Part shown: positions 30,759 to 37,769 of the stretch, one piece after another
Layout: the number at the start of each line of letters is the position of its first letter
How positions within the stretch are numbered: the stretch's first letter is position 1
Virus record (IMG/VR): IMGVR_UViG_3300020183_000033
Location: 25,972 to 89,971 of that record
Source of the DNA: a virus
Reading direction: 5' to 3' (one strand)
Length of the DNA: 64,000 nucleotides
Position numbers and translations under genes: made by a program
The notes under the pieces: model-generated
What the model was told of the DNA's origin: nothing
Seen by the model: the letters and a program-made list of their open reading frames with translations, nothing else
Databases searched by the model: none

Positions 30759-33281
30759 GTGAACCATTATACCAATGTACAGGCTTGGGGTAACAAGCTA
30801 TTCGTTCGTAAAGTAGAAAATGGAAGTCGGTTCAATGAAGAAGTAACTGACTTCCATCCTCCCATCTGGGTTCCTGCCAAATCTAAGACTTCCAATACTA
30901 AATTTAAAAATCTATCTGGTTATCCCGTAGAACAGTTCGACGCAGGTTCGATCAAAGAAACAAAAGAGTTTATCGAGTCAAACAAAGGCGTTGATAACTT
31001 CTCGGTCTACGGCGACATCCAACCTCCTTACCAATACATTTCGCAGAACTATCCGTCTGATATTCATTGGGATCTCTCTAATATCGTGATCGCATATCTT
31101 GATATCGAGACGGAGTGTGAGAACGGCTTTCCTGATATCGCATCCGCTTCTGAAGTAGTCAACGCCATCGCGATTAAGTTCACGAACCAATCTAAACAGA
31201 TTGTATTTGGATGCGGTGAATATAATCGTATGAACACAGGAAACTTTGATTACGTAAAGTGTTCTTCGGAACATGAGTTACTAGAGAAGTTCATGAAAGT
31301 ATGGCGCGACAACTGCCCAGATATTATTACAGGCTGGAACGTTAAGTTCTTCGATATCCCTTACCTCACGAACCGCATCACGAAACTGTTCGGTGACACA
31401 AAGGCTTCTTATCTTTCACCTTGGCGTATTCTAAAACCACGCGAAATTGAGATCATGGGAAGAACACAATCTACTTATGAAATCTTCGGCATCTCAGTTC
31501 TTGATTACATTGACCTGTACAAGAAATTCACCTACACAAATCAAGAGAGCTACAAGCTAGATCACATTGCTTCGGTTGAGCTTGGTGTAAAGAAGATTGA
31601 TTATTCTGAATACGGTTCGCTTCATCTTCTTTACAAGAATGACTGGGAAAAGTTTATTGATTACAACGCTCATGACATTACTCTTGTAGAAGCGTTAGAA
31701 GATAAGATGAAGTTGATCGAGCTTGCGATCACCATGGCTTATGACGCCAAGGTAAACTTTGATGACGTGTTCGGTCAGGTTCGTATGTGGGACGTTATCA
31801 TCTACAACCATCTACTCAAGAAGGGTTATGTTATTCCTTCTCGCAAAGAGTCAAAAAAGACTTCGATTGAAGGTGCGTTCGTTAAAGACCCGATGGTAGG
31901 TTTCCATAACTGGGTCGTGTCATTTGATTTAACATCTCTATATCCGATGTTAATTCAGCAGTACAATATCTCGCCTGAGTGTTTAGTAGAAAATAGTTTT
32001 AAAAACTTGGATATCAACAAACTAGTTGAGAAGAAGCTAGATACTTCTTGGGCTAAAAATCAAAACGTTTGTGTTACAGCAAACGGTCATATGTTTGATC
32101 GTACTGCGAGAGGATTTTTACCTGAGTTGATGGCATGGATGTTCGATCAACGTAAGGAATATAAAAAGAAGCAACTCTTTGTTGAAAAAGAATTAGAAGC
32201 TAAGAAACACGAGCTAAACGCAGTTGAACTAAAGAAATACACAAACGAGATTTCAAAATACAAAAATCTGCAGATGGCGAAAAAGATTGCTTTAAACTCT
32301 GCGTATGGTGCTATGGGTAATCAATACTTCAGGTTTTTCGATTCAAGGTTGGCAGAAGCGATCACTGTTTCAGGACAGTTGTCAATTCGCTGGATTGAGA
32401 GGAAGTTAAATGAGTATTTCAATAAGTTGCTTGGCAGTAATCGCGATTACATTATTGCTGTTGATACAGATTCAGTCTATATTGACTTCGATCCGATCGT
32501 CACTAAATTTGTTAAAAACAAAAATAAGGAACAAACAATTAACCTGATCGATAAGATCTGCGAAGATCAAATCGGTCCTTACATTGACAAGTCATATGCT
32601 GAGCTTGCTGAGTATATGAATGCGTTTGATAACAAGATGTCGATGAAAAGAGAATCAATCGCGGATCGTGGTATCTGGACTGCAAAAAAGCGTTACATTC
32701 TTCACGTTCATGACTCAGAAGGTGTTCGTTATTCTGAACCAAAGTTAAAGATCATGGGTATTGAAGCAGTGCGTTCTTCTACACCTGGGTCTTGTCGTTC
32801 TAAGATCAAAGACGCGCTAAAGATTATTATGACAAAAGAAGAAGACGATTTGATTCAGTTCGTGTCTGCCTTTAAACAATCTTTCTTTAAAATGAAACCA
32901 GAAGAAATTTCTTTTCCAAGAACTGTTAATGGGTTAGCGAACTATCGCGACAGAACTAACATTTACAAGAAGGCAACACCAATCCATGTTCGAGGATCCC
33001 TAATTTACAACCATCTTCTTAATAAGCTTGATCTGACCAATACATACTCTACCATTAACGAAGGCGAGAAGATTAAATTTATTTACCTTAAGAAGCCTAA
33101 TGTTATTCAAGAAGACATTATTTCGTTTTCTTCTAATTTGCCTAAAGAGTTTATGTTAAACGAATCAATTGATTACGAGAAGCAATTTGAGAAAACATTT
33201 CTAGATCCTCTAACATTGATTTTGGGAGTTATAGGTTGGAACCATAAAAAGATATCAACGCTTGACTCTTTTTTCGTTTAA
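30759..33281 (+). CDS. gp43: Family B DNA polymerase gp43
   Basis: DIETE exo I, GWNV..FDIPY, SFDLTSLYP, K..LNSAYG, DTDS, KKRY; no intein or intron seen. Confidence 0.98.
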   Translation: MNHYTNVQAWGNKLFVRKVENGSRFNEEVTDFHPPIWVPAKSKTSNTKFKNLSGYPVEQFDAGSIKETKEFIESNKGVDNFSVYGDIQPPYQYISQNYPSDIHWDLSNIVIAYLDIETECENGFPDIASASEVVNAIAIKFTNQSKQIVFGCGEYNRMNTGNFDYVKCSSEHELLEKFMKVWRDNCPDIITGWNVKFFDIPYLTNRITKLFGDTKASYLSPWRILKPREIEIMGRTQSTYEIFGISVLDYIDLYKKFTYTNQESYKLDHIASVELGVKKIDYSEYGSLHLLYKNDWEKFIDYNAHDITLVEALEDKMKLIELAITMAYDAKVNFDDVFGQVRMWDVIIYNHLLKKGYVIPSRKESKKTSIEGAFVKDPMVGFHNWVVSFDLTSLYPMLIQQYNISPECLVENSFKNLDINKLVEKKLDTSWAKNQNVCVTANGHMFDRTARGFLPELMAWMFDQRKEYKKKQLFVEKELEAKKHELNAVELKKYTNEISKYKNLQMAKKIALNSAYGAMGNQYFRFFDSRLAEAITVSGQLSIRWIERKLNEYFNKLLGSNRDYIIAVDTDSVYIDFDPIVTKFVKNKNKEQTINLIDKICEDQIGPYIDKSYAELAEYMNAFDNKMSMKRESIADRGIWTAKKRYILHVHDSEGVRYSEPKLKIMGIEAVRSSTPGSCRSKIKDALKIIMTKEEDDLIQFVSAFKQSFFKMKPEEISFPRTVNGLANYRDRTNIYKKATPIHVRGSLIYNHLLNKLDLTNTYSTINEGEKIKFIYLKKPNVIQEDIISFSSNLPKEFMLNESIDYEKQFEKTFLDPLTLILGVIGWNHKKISTLDSFFV

Positions 33282-33298
33282 TACAAGGAACTATTCAA

Positions 33299-33922
33299 TT
33301 GAAAGAAACAGAAGTATTACCGTCTCGATATAAGATCGCCAAATATTGGTTCAATCTAAAAAAGAACAACAACCCAATATACATAAAGTCAACAACCGAT
33401 CTAGGAGAGCCGCAATGCTTTGCTTGCGGCTTCTATAACCCTAGATGGGAAAGAAAAGTAATTGAAGAATGGGAACAGAAGAACAAAAAAGAGTTCTCTG
33501 GTTGGCATGAAGATGATCCTAAATTTGAATCATGGATGGAAAAGATATGGAGCAACACCAAGTTAGAAAGAGCGCATATCATAGCTTCTTCCGTAGAAGG
33601 TGATTGTAGTGTTGACAATTTAGTTCTTCTTTGTTCTGGTTGTCACTTAAATGCGCCAATGACAAACAACCCACAATACATGTATGATTACATCAACAAC
33701 AAACCATACTTTACTTCTAGTAATCTAGAACAATTTCAGAAGGATTTAAATGCTTCGCCCTATGGCGAGTCCATCATAGAGAAATTGACAAAATTAAAAA
33801 CAGAAGAAGAAGAGCAAGAAATAGTGAATAAGTTTATCGAAAAATTCAATGAATTGCAAGTAGGAAATCATTTTAGTCATGTTAGTAATTTTAGTTTGAT
33901 TTGCGCACTAAACGAGTTATAA
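33299..33922 (+). CDS. HNH endonuclease
   Basis: CFAC ... LERAHI.....GD....NLVLLC..CH. Confidence 0.8.
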   Translation: MKETEVLPSRYKIAKYWFNLKKNNNPIYIKSTTDLGEPQCFACGFYNPRWERKVIEEWEQKNKKEFSGWHEDDPKFESWMEKIWSNTKLERAHIIASSVEGDCSVDNLVLLCSGCHLNAPMTNNPQYMYDYINNKPYFTSSNLEQFQKDLNASPYGESIIEKLTKLKTEEEEQEIVNKFIEKFNELQVGNHFSHVSNFSLICALNEL

Positions 33923-33938
33923 TATAGTAAGAGGATCC

Positions 33939-34844
33939 ATGTCACTTTTAGATAAAATTTTAAAGAATTCAACAATCAAGACTACTTCTACTCTCGGTGA
34001 GTCAAAGGTATTCACTAAGCAGGAAGAAGTTTCTACTCCGATTCCTGCGATAAACGTAGCAGTTTCAGGAAAACTTGATGGTGGATTTGTACCAGGAATT
34101 ACAGTATTCGCTGGACCTTCAAAGCACTTTAAAACAGCCTTTGCCCTTCTCTTGGGAAAGGCATTTATGGAAAAATACCCAGACTCTGTGATGCTTTTCT
34201 ATGACAATGAGTTCGGTGCACCGCAGCAGTATTTTGATAATTTCGGGATTGATACCTCGCGCGTAGCTCATACACCGATTACCAATATTGAAGAGTTAAA
34301 GTTTGATATCGCAAAGCAGTTAAACGACCTGTCCGAGAAGGAAAAGGTTATTATCGTTATTGACTCAGTTGGTAATCTTGCTTCAAAGAAAGAAGCACAA
34401 AACGCCTTAGAAGAGAACTCCGCTGCCGATATGACTCGCGCAAAGGAGATGAAGTCTCTTTTCCGTATCGTGACTCCTCATATCAAGATGAAGAACATTC
34501 CTATGATTGTTATTAATCACACCTACAAGGAAATGGGTTTGTTCCCAAAAGATGTTGTTTCTGGTGGATGTGTTGTCGCTGGTACGATGATACAAACGCC
34601 AGAAGGATTGAAGGCAGTAGAAGAATTTAAAGTCGGTGATCGTGTAATTACTGTTGGTGGATCTAATCTTGTCACACATGTCTGGGACCCCACTACATTA
34701 GAAGAAGGAGAACCTGAGTGTTTCGAGATCGAGTTCGAAGACGGTTACAAGGTAGTGTGTTCCGAACGTCATAAATTTTTGATTGATGGAGTTTGGGTGG
34801 AGGCCAAAGATCTCTTGATAGGTCAAGAAGCTTCTGTAGTATAG
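33939..34844 (+). CDS. uvsX: UvsX recombinase N-extein (aa 1-210) fused to split-intein N-fragment (91 aa)
   Basis: AGPSKHFKT, FYD.EFG, IDSVGNLASKKE, ADMTRAK..KSLFR, NHTY, VVSGG, then CVVAGT.I.T..G (block A) and CSERHKFL (block B). Confidence 0.95.
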   Translation: MSLLDKILKNSTIKTTSTLGESKVFTKQEEVSTPIPAINVAVSGKLDGGFVPGITVFAGPSKHFKTAFALLLGKAFMEKYPDSVMLFYDNEFGAPQQYFDNFGIDTSRVAHTPITNIEELKFDIAKQLNDLSEKEKVIIVIDSVGNLASKKEAQNALEENSAADMTRAKEMKSLFRIVTPHIKMKNIPMIVINHTYKEMGLFPKDVVSGGCVVAGTMIQTPEGLKAVEEFKVGDRVITVGGSNLVTHVWDPTTLEEGEPECFEIEFEDGYKVVCSERHKFLIDGVWVEAKDLLIGQEASVV

Positions 34845-35669
34845 TATAGTCAAAAATCTGTTTTTTATATATCTATTATACTGTAGATAAAATAAGGAGC
34901 AGAATATGAACTATAAGAGAATATACGAAGAATTGATATTCAACGCAAAAAAATAGAGAAGTACAAGGTTATACAGAGAATCATCATATAATACCAAAGT
35001 GTATGGGCGGAGATGATTCTATGGATAACCTTGTACGTTTAACAGCCAGAGAACATTATTTGGCGCATGAATTGTTATTTAAACATTATAAGACTACTAA
35101 ATTGGCGCACGCTTGGTTTAGTATGTTGAGGCGTGATGCGAATCAAGAAAGGTTCTTTACTTCGAAACAATATGAAAAGGCTAGAATAGCACACTCAGAA
35201 GCCATGAAAGAAACCATGGGCGGTAGTAATAATCGTTTTTTTGGTCGAAAACATACAGAAGAAACTAAAAGAAAAATCGGAGAAGCTAATTTAGGAGAAA
35301 AACGGAGCGCAGATCAAATTAAATTATGGGTCGAACGAGTCGCTAAAAAACCAAAAAGCATTGAGCATCGTGCTAAAATTAGTCGCCCTGGTTTTATCAT
35401 GTTGAAGAATATAGAAACTGGCGAATGCATTAGAGTTGACAAACAAGTTGCAATAGGCTATAATAGTAGTATATGGAAAAATCCAGCTTCAATAACACAA
35501 AAAAGAGAAGTTTGCGTTTATTGTGGTAAAGAATCGGTATCAGGAAATATAAAAAGGTGGCATAATGAAAATTGTAAACATAACCCCGATAGGTAAGAAA
35601 CAGGTATATGACTTATCAGTTGAAGCGGTCGAACATTACGTACTGGCTAATGGTGTAGTAACTCATAAC
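34569..35669 (+). mobile_element. Split intein (IntN 34569-34841, IntC 35565-35669) flanking a free-standing homing endonuclease
   Basis: Cys1 after SGG; IntN ends at a stop; IntC MKI..I...G...VYDL.V...H.Y.LANG.VTHN followed by Thr+1. Confidence 0.92.
34906..35596 (+). pseudogene. HNH/NUMOD3-type homing endonuclease with a +1 frameshift in an A7 run
   Basis: AAGGAG SD, MNYKRIYEELIFNAK then stop at 34954. Removing one A restores NREVQGYTENHHIIPKCMGGDD...NLV.LTAREH..AH.LL and NUMOD3-like FGRKHTEETKRKI. Confidence 0.8.
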
Positions 35670-36050
35670 ACAGGTATCTATTACTCAGCTGACAACATCT
35701 ATATCATTGGTCGTCAGCAGGATAAAGACGGCAAGGAAGTTGTTGGATTTAACTTCATTATCAACGTAGAGAAGTCACGGTTCGTAAAAGAAAAGTCCAA
35801 GATCCCTGTTGAGTTCTCGTTGGAAGATGGCATCTCTAAGTATTCAGGTCTGCTTGATATGGCATTGGAATCTGGGTTTGTAACTAACCCAACTAAGGGA
35901 TGGTATCAGTTCGGGGAGAACAAGTTCCGTGCTGATAACTTTGGTGAGCACGCAGAAGTTCTTCTCGCGTCTGATGAGTTCAAGCAATGGGTTATTGATA
36001 AATATTCACTGAATACCAGACTCTGGCAAGCAGAAGAGGAAGAAGAATAA
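35565..36050 (+). CDS. uvsX: Split-intein C-fragment (35 aa) fused to UvsX C-extein (126 aa)
   Basis: THN|TGIYYSADNI.IIGRQQ.K.G....G.NF.INVEKSR.VKEKSKIP, continuing UvsX exactly after SGG. Confidence 0.95.
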   Translation: MKIVNITPIGKKQVYDLSVEAVEHYVLANGVVTHNTGIYYSADNIYIIGRQQDKDGKEVVGFNFIINVEKSRFVKEKSKIPVEFSLEDGISKYSGLLDMALESGFVTNPTKGWYQFGENKFRADNFGEHAEVLLASDEFKQWVIDKYSLNTRLWQAEEEEE

Positions 36051-36421
36051 TGACAAAGAAGAAATCAGATAGCTATAATTTCGTGACGATGCCTGACCTA
36101 AAGTGCTCCTACTTTTTAGTAGAGAACAAGCAGAAGGGAAACGATGTCATCGCTCTTCTCCTTCGCCTTGAAGAAGGAAGACATAAAGGAATTATCGTCG
36201 AGATTTCTAAGTTTGAACTAGCTGAAAATTCAAACAACTTGACTTTTAACTATGATGTAGTGTATAATCCATATGAGAAGATTCCAAACGTTAAAACAAT
36301 TGAAACCTTTATCCGTAAAACTGTTGGTCGTATTATTACTAATGCACTTAGTTGTGTTCTTTTAAACGAGGGTTTTCCTGATGAAAATAGAATCTCTGAT
36401 TCTGAAGTCGTTACTAGTTAA
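36050..36421 (+). CDS. Hypothetical protein at the gp40 position (possible head-vertex assembly chaperone)
   Basis: Between uvsX and gp41 as in T4; L.F.Y.V..NP pattern. Confidence 0.45.
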   Translation: MTKKKSDSYNFVTMPDLKCSYFLVENKQKGNDVIALLLRLEEGRHKGIIVEISKFELAENSNNLTFNYDVVYNPYEKIPNVKTIETFIRKTVGRIITNALSCVLLNEGFPDENRISDSEVVTS

Positions 36422-37769
36422 CGAAAATTATTGCCGTGCTGTATTACCATATCTAAAACCTGAGTATTTCACAGATTTTACTCAAAAAACGATCTTTAAA
36501 GCTATCAATGGATTCGTTAATAATTACAACGAACAACCTACCATTGAAGCGTTGCGCGTTATTCTTTCTGAGTCTTCCCTAAAAGAAGAGGAGTCAGATT
36601 CTGCTCTAACTTCTCTTGATGATTATGTTGACGGAGAAGAAAACAATTTTAACTGGTTAATGGATAAAACTGAAGAGTTCTGTAAGGAACAGGCTATCCA
36701 TAATGCTGTACTTGAGTCTATTCATATTATTTCTGACAAAAAAGAGAAAAAAGATAAAGGTGTTATCCCTGAGCTATTGAAAGAAGCTCTCGCAATCTCT
36801 TTTGATCCTACCGTTGGTCACGATTTCATGGAAGACTATGAAGCGCGATATGACTTCTATCATCGTAAAGAAGAACGTATTCCGTTTGATATCGAACAAT
36901 TAAATCAGATCACAAAGGGTGGTCTGCCACGCAAGACGCTCAACATTATCTTGGCGGGAACGGGAAGTGGAAAATCTCTTTCCATGTGTCACTTCGCTAC
37001 AACAAATCTAACGCAGGGTAAGAACGTTTTGTACATCACGATGGAAATGGCAGAACAGAAGATCGCGGAACGTATTGACGCAAATATGTTGGATATCTCC
37101 CTAGAGAATCTGGCTCTTATTTCTAAGGAACAATACACGAAGTTAATTACAAGCGCGAAGAAGCGCACGACAGGTAGGTTGATCGTGAAGGAATATCCGA
37201 CTTCTTCTGCAAATGTAAATCACTTCCGTCATCTTCTGAATGAGTTGAACCTCAAGAAGAAGTTTGTTCCTGATATTATCTACATTGACTATTTGAATAT
37301 CTGTTCTTCTTCTAGAATGAAGTTCTCACCAAACGTGAACTCTTACACGATGATTAAATCTATTGCAGAAGAGATCCGTGGTCTAGCTGTTGAATTTGAC
37401 GTTCCAATTATCAGTGCTACCCAGACGAATAGAACAGGCTTTTCTTCTTCTGACGTTGAACTAACAGATACGTCTGAATCGTTTGGTTTGCCAGCAACGG
37501 CTGACTTTATGATTGCTCTTATCAACACAGAAGAGTTGGAAAAGATGTCTCAATTGTTAGTAAAGCAGCTAAAGAACAGATACAACGATGTATCCTCGAA
37601 CAAGAAGTTCTGTGTTGGAATTGATCGTTCTAAGATGAGATTATATCAAGTTTCTGAAACCACAAGCGGATATGAAACATCTAATAATAGTGAGGACTTC
37701 TATACGGATGCGCCTGATTATGGTGGTCGGTCTACGTTAAAGGACAAGTTCAACAACTTTAAATTCTAG
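36381..37769 (+). CDS. gp41: Replicative helicase gp41
   Basis: AGTGSGKS, LYITMEMAE..IAERIDAN, KEYPT, IDYLNIC, SATQTNR, SESFGLPATAD, QLKNRY. Confidence 0.97.
   Translation: MKIESLILKSLLVNENYCRAVLPYLKPEYFTDFTQKTIFKAINGFVNNYNEQPTIEALRVILSESSLKEEESDSALTSLDDYVDGEENNFNWLMDKTEEFCKEQAIHNAVLESIHIISDKKEKKDKGVIPELLKEALAISFDPTVGHDFMEDYEARYDFYHRKEERIPFDIEQLNQITKGGLPRKTLNIILAGTGSGKSLSMCHFATTNLTQGKNVLYITMEMAEQKIAERIDANMLDISLENLALISKEQYTKLITSAKKRTTGRLIVKEYPTSSANVNHFRHLLNELNLKKKFVPDIIYIDYLNICSSSRMKFSPNVNSYTMIKSIAEEIRGLAVEFDVPIISATQTNRTGFSSSDVELTDTSESFGLPATADFMIALINTEELEKMSQLLVKQLKNRYNDVSSNKKFCVGIDRSKMRLYQVSETTSGYETSNNSEDFYTDAPDYGGRSTLKDKFNNFKF

Follow-up and report, generated by a model that had tools for sequence, protein, structure and literature searches.

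Organisation of the uvsX locus

This report concerns the recombinase gene uvsX in a stretch of 64,000 nt of phage DNA, referred to below as the window, which is part of the IMG/VR virus record IMGVR_UViG_3300020183_000033 (89,971 bp, about 50% complete). In the window, uvsX is divided between two open reading frames (ORFs), 33939-34844 (301 aa) and 35565-36050 (161 aa), each half with a separate start codon and Shine-Dalgarno sequence (SD), and a homing-endonuclease gene lies between them. The first ORF encodes UvsX residues 1-210, ending ...KDVVSGG (NHTYKEMGLFPKDVVSGG), then an N-terminal intein half (IntN) of 91 aa (CVVAGTMIQTPEGLKAVEEF...CSERHKFLIDGVWVEAKDLLIGQEASVV), which begins CVVAGTMIQT and ends GQEASVV, and closes with TAG. 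The second ORF encodes a C-terminal intein half (IntC) of 35 aa (MKIVNITPIGKKQVYDLSVEAVEHYVLANGVVTHN), followed by the remaining 126 aa of UvsX (TGIYYSADNIYIIGR...; TGIYYSADNIYIIGRQQDK...). The two host-protein parts (exteins) sum up to a UvsX of 336 aa (210 + 126). The original prediction, made from the letters alone, had described this partition. Comparison with the ORFs and the raw sequence bore it out to the base, its coordinates, residue counts and junctions being exact.

Pfam searches detected RecA, Hint_2, PT-HINT and Intein_splicing on the N-half ORF, and Intein_splicing (positions 122-155 of 155, the last 34) together with T4_UVSX_C on the C-half ORF. The surrounding gene order is of the T4 type, with gp43 (30759-33281), uvsX, a small gene at the gp40 position and gp41 (36381-37769). 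The features of the locus are as follows:

33896-33923, plus strand: tentative sigma-70-like promoter TTGATT-16-TATAAT (10/12), just 5' of the uvsX N-half, from a consensus scan only
33939-34568, plus strand: UvsX N-extein, residues 1-210, C-terminal VVSGG (Pfam RecA; phrog_97/phrog_8337)
34569-34844, plus strand: IntN, 91 aa from Cys1, block B SERH, net charge -11, TAG stop (Pfam Hint_2 and PT-HINT; match to 6QAZ)
34845-34915, plus strand: 5' untranslated region of the endonuclease gene with a predicted hairpin, in which the SD AAGGAG is paired with an upstream U-rich arm
34906-34956, plus strand: first 16 codons of the HNH homing-endonuclease gene (MNYKRIYEELIFNAKK), with TAG directly after an A7 run (34947-34953)
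34952-35596, plus strand: endonuclease body in the +1 frame, with HNH motif ENHHIIPKCMGGDDSMDNLVRLTAREH, NUMOD3 and a C-terminal Cys/His DNA-binding domain
35436-35464, plus strand: predicted sigma-70 promoter TTGACA-17-TATAAT (12/12), within the 3' part of the endonuclease gene
35554-35560, plus strand: SD AAGGTGG of the C-half ORF, read from the sequence
35565-35669, plus strand: IntC, 35 aa, blocks F and G, ending VVTHN; the first 32 nt are shared with the 3' end of the endonuclease gene
35670-36050, plus strand: UvsX C-extein, 126 aa, starting with Thr+1 (TGIYYSAD...), then stop (Pfam T4_UVSX_C; alignments)

A megablast search of positions 33000-37000 against 50,697 phage records gave zero matches, which indicates a phage without a close cultured relative. 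Four independent Logan assemblies from lake and freshwater samples (2018 and 2021, four studies, none flagged as the possible source) span the whole locus including the A7 run with 0 gaps, and therefore the arrangement is not an assembly artefact. No contig in these four runs joins across the insert, a result that says nothing on intein-less alleles in those lakes. The possibility that the layout is an assembly chimera, or that the insert is removed at the RNA level by a group I intron or a similar element, is the least probable of the alternatives considered here. Group I introns are known in recA/uvsX of other phages (PMC2677866), but an Rfam search of 33800-36200 on both strands gave no match at E<=1, and the group I intron reading was rejected on this result. 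Moreover, the insert is bounded by HINT halves in frame, which have a stop, a start and an SD of their own, and the same sequence was recovered from different samples and years.

Intein halves, insertion site and selection

The residues used in splicing are all present: Cys1 directly after VVSGG, S-E-R-H in block B, the Asp of VYDLS in block F, the terminal His-Asn and Thr+1, the end of IntC being VYDLSVEAVEHYVLANGVVTHN followed by T. Block B reads C-S-E-R-H-K-F, of which S..HKF is kept across alignments. IntN alone matched the sequence of the gp41-1 intein crystal structure (6QAZ) with an E-value of 5.4e-8, block B CSERH being aligned with CSEEH. The gp41-1 split intein is the closest solved homologue of the window intein; however, identity is only about 30-40%, and the host site and the +1 residue differ. 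IntN is acidic and IntC carries three Lys among its first 12 residues; charge complementarity between the halves has been described for fractured-gene inteins (PMC2677866).

The HINT fold was tested on a natural contiguous homologue, P0104, standing in for the two chains of the window. This metagenomic UvsX of 472 aa contains IntN and IntC as one contiguous insert of 130 aa at the same site (...VVSGG/CVVAGT...VGVDVNQIENRIMKIAKINKVGKKPVYDLSV...VVTHN/TGIYYSAD, the slashes marking the junctions) and is 64% identical to the window over a query of 107 residues comprising the junction and IntN. Its insert was aligned with the gp41-1 intein over the full length (residues 1-128, E 5.9e-12), and T4 UvsX is alignable on both flanks. 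The AlphaFold2 model of P0104, calculated from a 44-row alignment, has a mean pLDDT of 83.6, with values mostly of 85-96 in the intein region. A Foldseek search with this model matched the core to T4 UvsX (3IO5, TMt 0.93) and the inserted domain to gp41-1 (6QAZ, TMt 0.89, rmsd 2.1 Å, 30% identity). Judged by sequence and model, the two halves in the window are the two parts of one HINT domain, and the split position is the one at which canonical split inteins are split.

The insertion site can be read from intein-less alleles. An IMG/VR locus (L030), the exteins of which are 87% identical to those of the window, encodes UvsX in a single ORF of 333 aa and has the same 30 residues around the junction, YKEMGLFPKDVVSGG being followed directly by TGIYYSADNIYIIGR. 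Likewise, the unsplit UvsX of Phage C48C1 (...KDIVSGG/TGIYYSADNIW...) is contiguous across the junction in the alignments. Compared with the exteins of the window, no residues are gained or lost at SGG/TGIYYSAD in either protein. The alignment of L030 with T4 UvsX (3IO5) is unbroken through the GG/TG motif, which is highly conserved in UvsX and RecA and lies, in RecA, at the C-terminal end of the DNA-binding loop L2. By these alignments, the cassette is placed exactly between Gly210 and Thr211 of the conserved SGG/TG. Since L030 and C48C1 read straight through this site, excision and ligation would restore a normal UvsX of 336 aa, as the original prediction had expected; the splicing itself is what we infer. 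The N-extein is also alignable to T4 UvsX (3IO5); it is 94% identical to its counterpart in L009, which together with L010 is the closest intein-bearing relative, and 87% to that in L030. For IntC, identity to L009 amounts to 80%, and phrog_18112 is matched from profile position 1.

Conservation was assessed in the best 80 IMG/VR loci that code for N-half relatives. IntN occurs at this site in 45/80, and both halves are readable in 44, as L038 ends before IntC. Cys1 and the terminal Asn are found in all of these (44/44 each), and Thr+1 in 43/44 with Ser+1 in the other (1/44). Ser in place of Thr at +1 was seen in L051. In one clade (L033-L036, L044 and L053) Ser replaces the penultimate His (LVVSN/T).

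Substitutions were counted as proportions of nonsynonymous and synonymous differences (pN and pS) with L009/L010 as reference, synonymous sites being near saturation (pS 0.57-0.82). Against L009, pN/pS components are 0.037/0.70 for the N-extein, 0.142/0.82 for IntN, 0.110/0.64 for IntC and 0.13/0.58 for the nuclease, and pN of the C-extein is 0.089; the ratio for exteins is about 0.05-0.16 in comparison with relatives. By these values the exteins, both intein halves and the nuclease gene are under purifying selection, the intein halves less strongly than the exteins. Selection on the intein halves is expected if splicing is needed to make UvsX.

This has a bearing on two further alternatives. 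In one, the intein halves no longer splice and the UvsX pieces act as a non-covalent complex that is stabilised by the associated intein halves or other contacts, comparable to the split NrdA of Aeromonas phage Aeh1, which has no intein. T4-like phages do possess split genes that are functional without ligation (PMC3045599), and the Ser for the penultimate His in one sub-clade indicates some drift at catalytic positions. However, the window lacks none of the catalytic residues, which are also conserved in the 44 loci, the intein halves are selected, and a retained HINT domain of 126 aa at the conserved SGG/TG would probably interfere with filament function. We regard this alternative as very unlikely. 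Slightly less probable still is that uvsX is dead, i.e. that the cassette destroyed the gene and left remnants in decay. A frameshift is indeed found in the neighbouring endonuclease gene, and uvsX is dispensable in some T4-like lineages (PMC4177764), but both uvsX ORFs are of full length with starts and SDs, the low pN/pS ratio of the exteins does not suggest decay, and hundreds of lineages, among them cultured and viable phages, have retained the two-ORF layout.

We therefore favour, with a probability of about 0.88, the reading that uvsX is a 'fractured gene' of an uncultured freshwater T4-like phage, the halves of which would be joined by canonical split-intein trans-splicing. A mobile cassette consisting of a split mini-intein and a free-standing homing-endonuclease gene would have been inserted between Gly210 and Thr211. 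The halves would be translated separately, UvsX(1-210)-IntN from 33939 and IntC-UvsX(211-336) from 35565, the latter from an SD of its own and probably from a separate promoter. One HINT domain would then be formed by association of the acidic IntN with the IntC, the N-terminus of which is basic. Class-1 trans-splicing would follow, with an N-S acyl shift at Cys1, transesterification to Thr+1, Asn cyclisation and an O-N shift, and the product would be a seamless recombinase of 336 aa. The HNH endonuclease would have served as the homing engine which spread the cassette into intein-less uvsX alleles.

As regards expression of the C-half, the last 32 nt of the nuclease gene already belong to the IntC ORF, and the 12/12 sigma-70 promoter is located 129 nt 5' of the IntC start. 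The promoter is unchanged in place and sequence in L009, even though the nucleotide divergence is 22% and synonymous sites are near saturation; other clades have 11/12 promoters 37-151 nt 5' of IntC, and SDs comparable to AAGGTGG precede IntC in most related loci. Because of its own SD and this predicted, conserved promoter, the C-half is probably expressed independently of read-through from the N-half.

Several points weigh against trans-splicing as we propose it. A literature search found no splicing assay for any member of the UvsX-intein family. In block B, the usual Thr is replaced by Ser, although S-E-x-H occurs in the aligned gp41-1 intein as well. The promoter assignments are consensus predictions, and the assignment of the hairpin 5' of the nuclease gene is an energy prediction. 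Finally, the 90-kb record contains a single uvsX/recA match, but as it is only about half complete, a second, intact recombinase gene may be located elsewhere in the genome.

The endonuclease gene and variants of the site

The IntN ORF is followed by a spacer of 61 nt, the SD AAGGAG and the ATG at 34906. Behind the 16 codons that end at the TAG after the A7 run, the +1 frame runs on (NREVQGYTENHHIIPKCMGG...; NREVQGYTENHHIIPKCMGGDDSMDNLVRLTAREHY...) for 214 codons to 35596. The product belongs to a homing-endonuclease family according to phrog_655 (E 3.4e-50) and NUMOD3 (36 bits vs a cut-off of 20.4). The Pfam matches to HNH, HNH_4 and HNH_5 were weak and below their cut-offs, and the HNH motif is visible by eye. 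By profile and motif, the interrupting gene is an HNH homing endonuclease. The earlier statement that an endonuclease gene lies between the halves thus holds for the presence of the gene but not for its integrity, as its reading frame is interrupted. L009/L010 have the homologue as a single intact ORF of 229 aa (MNYKRIYDELIDNAKQRKAQGYTELHH...), and the nuclease of the window would be restored to 229 aa by dropping one A or by skipping the T of TAG. The longest ORF (197 aa, ATG at 35003) is without an SD and starts after the HH of the HNH motif. No uninterrupted ORF including the first catalytic His, as would be expected for an active HNH endonuclease, is found in the window.

Assembly error or random homopolymer error is unlikely to account for the break, since the A7 run is covered without gaps in four independent assemblies. 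The nuclease body is 79% identical to the L009 nuclease with a pN/pS of about 0.23; the break is therefore either recent, or the gene is still expressed by slippage. A consensus of T4 late promoters (TATAAATA) is situated just 5' of the nuclease start in L009 and in 14 others of 34 tabulated loci, whereas the window has TATATATC at this position, in the 5' arm of the hairpin, which also suggests decay of the nuclease gene. The hairpin itself has a predicted minimum free energy of -21.7 kcal/mol (z -4.8; z -3.9 for the equivalent in L009). From the A7 frameshift and the lost late-promoter consensus, it appears somewhat more probable than any other explanation that the gene is a recent pseudogene, most likely recently inactivated. 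Restoration of the frame at a low level, by transcriptional slippage on A7 or by a +1 ribosomal shift at AAA-UAG, is a tentative second explanation, and what probability remains falls to a systematic error. A more far-reaching idea combines three elements. The endonuclease would be throttled and not dead, A-AAA-AAA-UAG acting as a switch of +1 recoding or transcriptional slippage that yields a small fraction of full-length enzyme. The intein would be a pad hosting nucleases which swap HNH and GIY-type domains on one uvsX-targeting DNA-binding domain. The UvsX intein with Thr+1 would represent an untapped fast family orthogonal to gp41-1. As a joint reading we consider this unlikely.

The contents of the gap between the halves were compared in the 34 tabulated representative loci and in two contiguous forms. 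Some loci contain a full HNH nuclease like that of the window. Others have a SegG-like GIY-like nuclease ('YK.TF..PYYYIGSK'), as found in cultured phages, or a third nuclease type (MTFKLMIKTH...), and Thanatos-1 has a Seg-like GIY-YIG nuclease. C-terminal nuclease remnants are left in L011, L024 and L039, and a short 5' fragment of a GIY-like gene in L041. The gap is nearly empty in L013 (106 nt, with a tblastn trace of the nuclease C-terminus), L023 (75 nt) and L045 (35 nt). These seven loci represent successive degrees of endonuclease decay in which the split intein persists. Contiguous (cis) mini-inteins without a gap occur at the same site in L048:3501-4928 and L052:3501-4973. In P0104, the linker retains the Met of the IntC start, which suggests that it descends from a split form that lost the endonuclease gene.

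The HNH enzyme of the window and the GIY-type enzymes of Pseudomonas phage PspYZU05 and Vibrio phage EniLVp02 have their C-terminal ~130-150 aa in common (NUMOD3 ... C.YCGK...KRWH.E.C), with 36-45% identity and E-values of 2e-24 (PspYZU05) and 2e-26 (EniLVp02), and their N-terminal catalytic domains are unrelated (nucleases compared: window 34937-35593, L004:3459-4307 and L006:3514-4365). This looks like an exchange of catalytic domains on a common, uvsX-directed DNA-binding module, and fits the known modularity of such enzymes.

Further observations concern neighbouring or additional elements. P0073, a metagenomic UvsX middle piece of 366 aa, starts with what appears to be the C-terminal part of another intein (...IIHHN/T) at the expected Walker A position, and its C-terminal end is the IntN of the GG/T site. 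From this, uvsX of some phages seems to be divided into three pieces by two different split inteins. In the window, an HNH ORF of 207 aa (33299-33922, plus strand; Pfam HNH, 24.3 bits) is located between gp43 and uvsX. It was found in 0/80 of the related loci; in the closest relatives L009, L010 and L030, about 27 nt separate the end of the polymerase gene from uvsX. At 33931-33966, contigs of lake metagenomes break off, and some of them have a different upstream sequence. The absence of the ORF in relatives and these contig breaks suggest that a second free-standing endonuclease gene 5' of uvsX is polymorphic for presence and absence. In L005 (Vibrio phage vB_VmeM-32, 1-2372) the annotation breaks up the DNA polymerase 5' of the fractured uvsX into several pieces, with a hypothetical ORF in between, which may mean that a further replication gene of this phage is fragmented.

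Distribution, known fractured genes and significance

The query of junction and IntN (residues 195-301) matched at least 255 protein clusters. With tblastn against the 50,697 phage records, 46 records were found to cover at least 80% of the N-half including IntN, and these phages also gave matches to the C-half that begin at IntC residue 1. The same layout of three genes is present in Escherichia phage HY03 (Tequatrovirus), Proteus phage Pm5461 (Bragavirus), Pseudomonas phage PspYZU05 (Jiangsuvirus), Shewanella phage Thanatos-1 and Vibrio phages vB_VmeM-32 and EniLVp02. By homology, the same intein is located at the same site in cultured phages of several Straboviridae genera: IntN and IntC are about 55-65% identical to those of the window, the GG/TG site is the same, and an endonuclease gene lies between the halves. 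Unlike the HNH catalytic domain in the window, the nucleases of these carriers are of the GIY type (SegG-like or Seg-like). In GenBank, their halves are labelled only as 'recombination protein', 'hypothetical protein' or, once, 'HintC'. PHROGs v4 has one family for each half, phrog_8337 running into IntN and phrog_18112 starting at IntC. With the same intein family and site in hundreds of metagenomic clusters and dozens of cultured-phage genomes, the novelty suggested for the intein in the original prediction was overstated. Lists of atypically split inteins from Lake Vida metagenomes are said to include UvsX-hosted ones. Our literature search found no paper describing a UvsX split intein, and such an intein is missing from both Dassa et al. 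2009 (PMC2677866) and a paper on a library of orthogonal inteins (PMC7090010).

The fractured genes described by Dassa et al. comprise gp41-1 to -9, NrdJ-1, NrdA-1 to -7, IMPDH-1, DnaE, a ligase and a terminase (PMC2677866). The locus in the window corresponds to these in its three co-oriented ORFs (N-terminal host part with IntN, free-standing endonuclease, IntC with C-terminal host part), although the endonuclease ORF, intact in L009/L010, is frameshifted in the window. Its IntN of 91 aa and IntC of 35 aa are within the reported ranges of 88-105 and 33-54 aa, and the 32-nt overlap of the endonuclease ORF end with the IntC ORF is a further similarity. As in that study, a hairpin is predicted to sequester the ribosome-binding site of the endonuclease gene; in relatives of the window it includes the T4-late promoter, replaced in the window as described above. 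The host is, as there, a replication or recombination gene of a T4-like phage, and variants lacking the homing-endonuclease gene exist among the UvsX-intein loci as for gp41-7 (PMC2677866). In contrast to the published cases, the host protein is UvsX, which appears there only as a neighbour of gp41, and the +1 residue is Thr, while the paper gives Cys at +1 in its DnaE coordinates. The endonuclease is of the HNH-NUMOD3 type and its gene is broken, whereas GIY-YIG and Vsr-like enzymes were reported (PMC2677866).

The nuclease gene also resembles those of the free-standing T4 endonucleases mobE, segA and I-TevI, which combine HNH or GIY-YIG with NUMOD modules, a late promoter and a hairpin sequestering the ribosome-binding site; uvsX is already known as a target gene of SegA (PMC2988022). 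In contrast to these genes, which are positioned between genes, that of the window is inside a coding sequence, which is tolerable through the split intein. New to the known class are the host gene uvsX, Thr+1 and the HNH nuclease, in a large family that is already contained, unremarked, in public phage genomes. Specific for the window are the HNH type of the nuclease, the A7 frameshift, the conserved internal promoter and the second, apparently polymorphic HNH gene 5' of uvsX.

Natural split inteins of phage fractured genes, such as gp41-1 and NrdJ-1, are among the fastest tools for protein ligation. The UvsX family is large, diverse and apparently uncharacterised, and with Cys1/Thr+1 and the native SGG/TG context it could add orthogonal members; a value as new orthogonal split intein appears plausible, without being peculiar to the window. 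As the family occurs in cultured coliphages, trans-splicing of an important recombinase is genetically testable, and the coliphage carriers are the better entry point. Furthermore, the related loci document a whole homing cycle at one site, from the empty site (L030) and contiguous mini-inteins (P0104, L048, L052) to the split form with intact nuclease (L009), the frameshifted nuclease of the window, nuclease remnants (L011, L024, L039) and, at last, little or no nuclease left (L013, L023, L045). The known picture of fractured genes is thereby not changed, but it is extended to another host gene.

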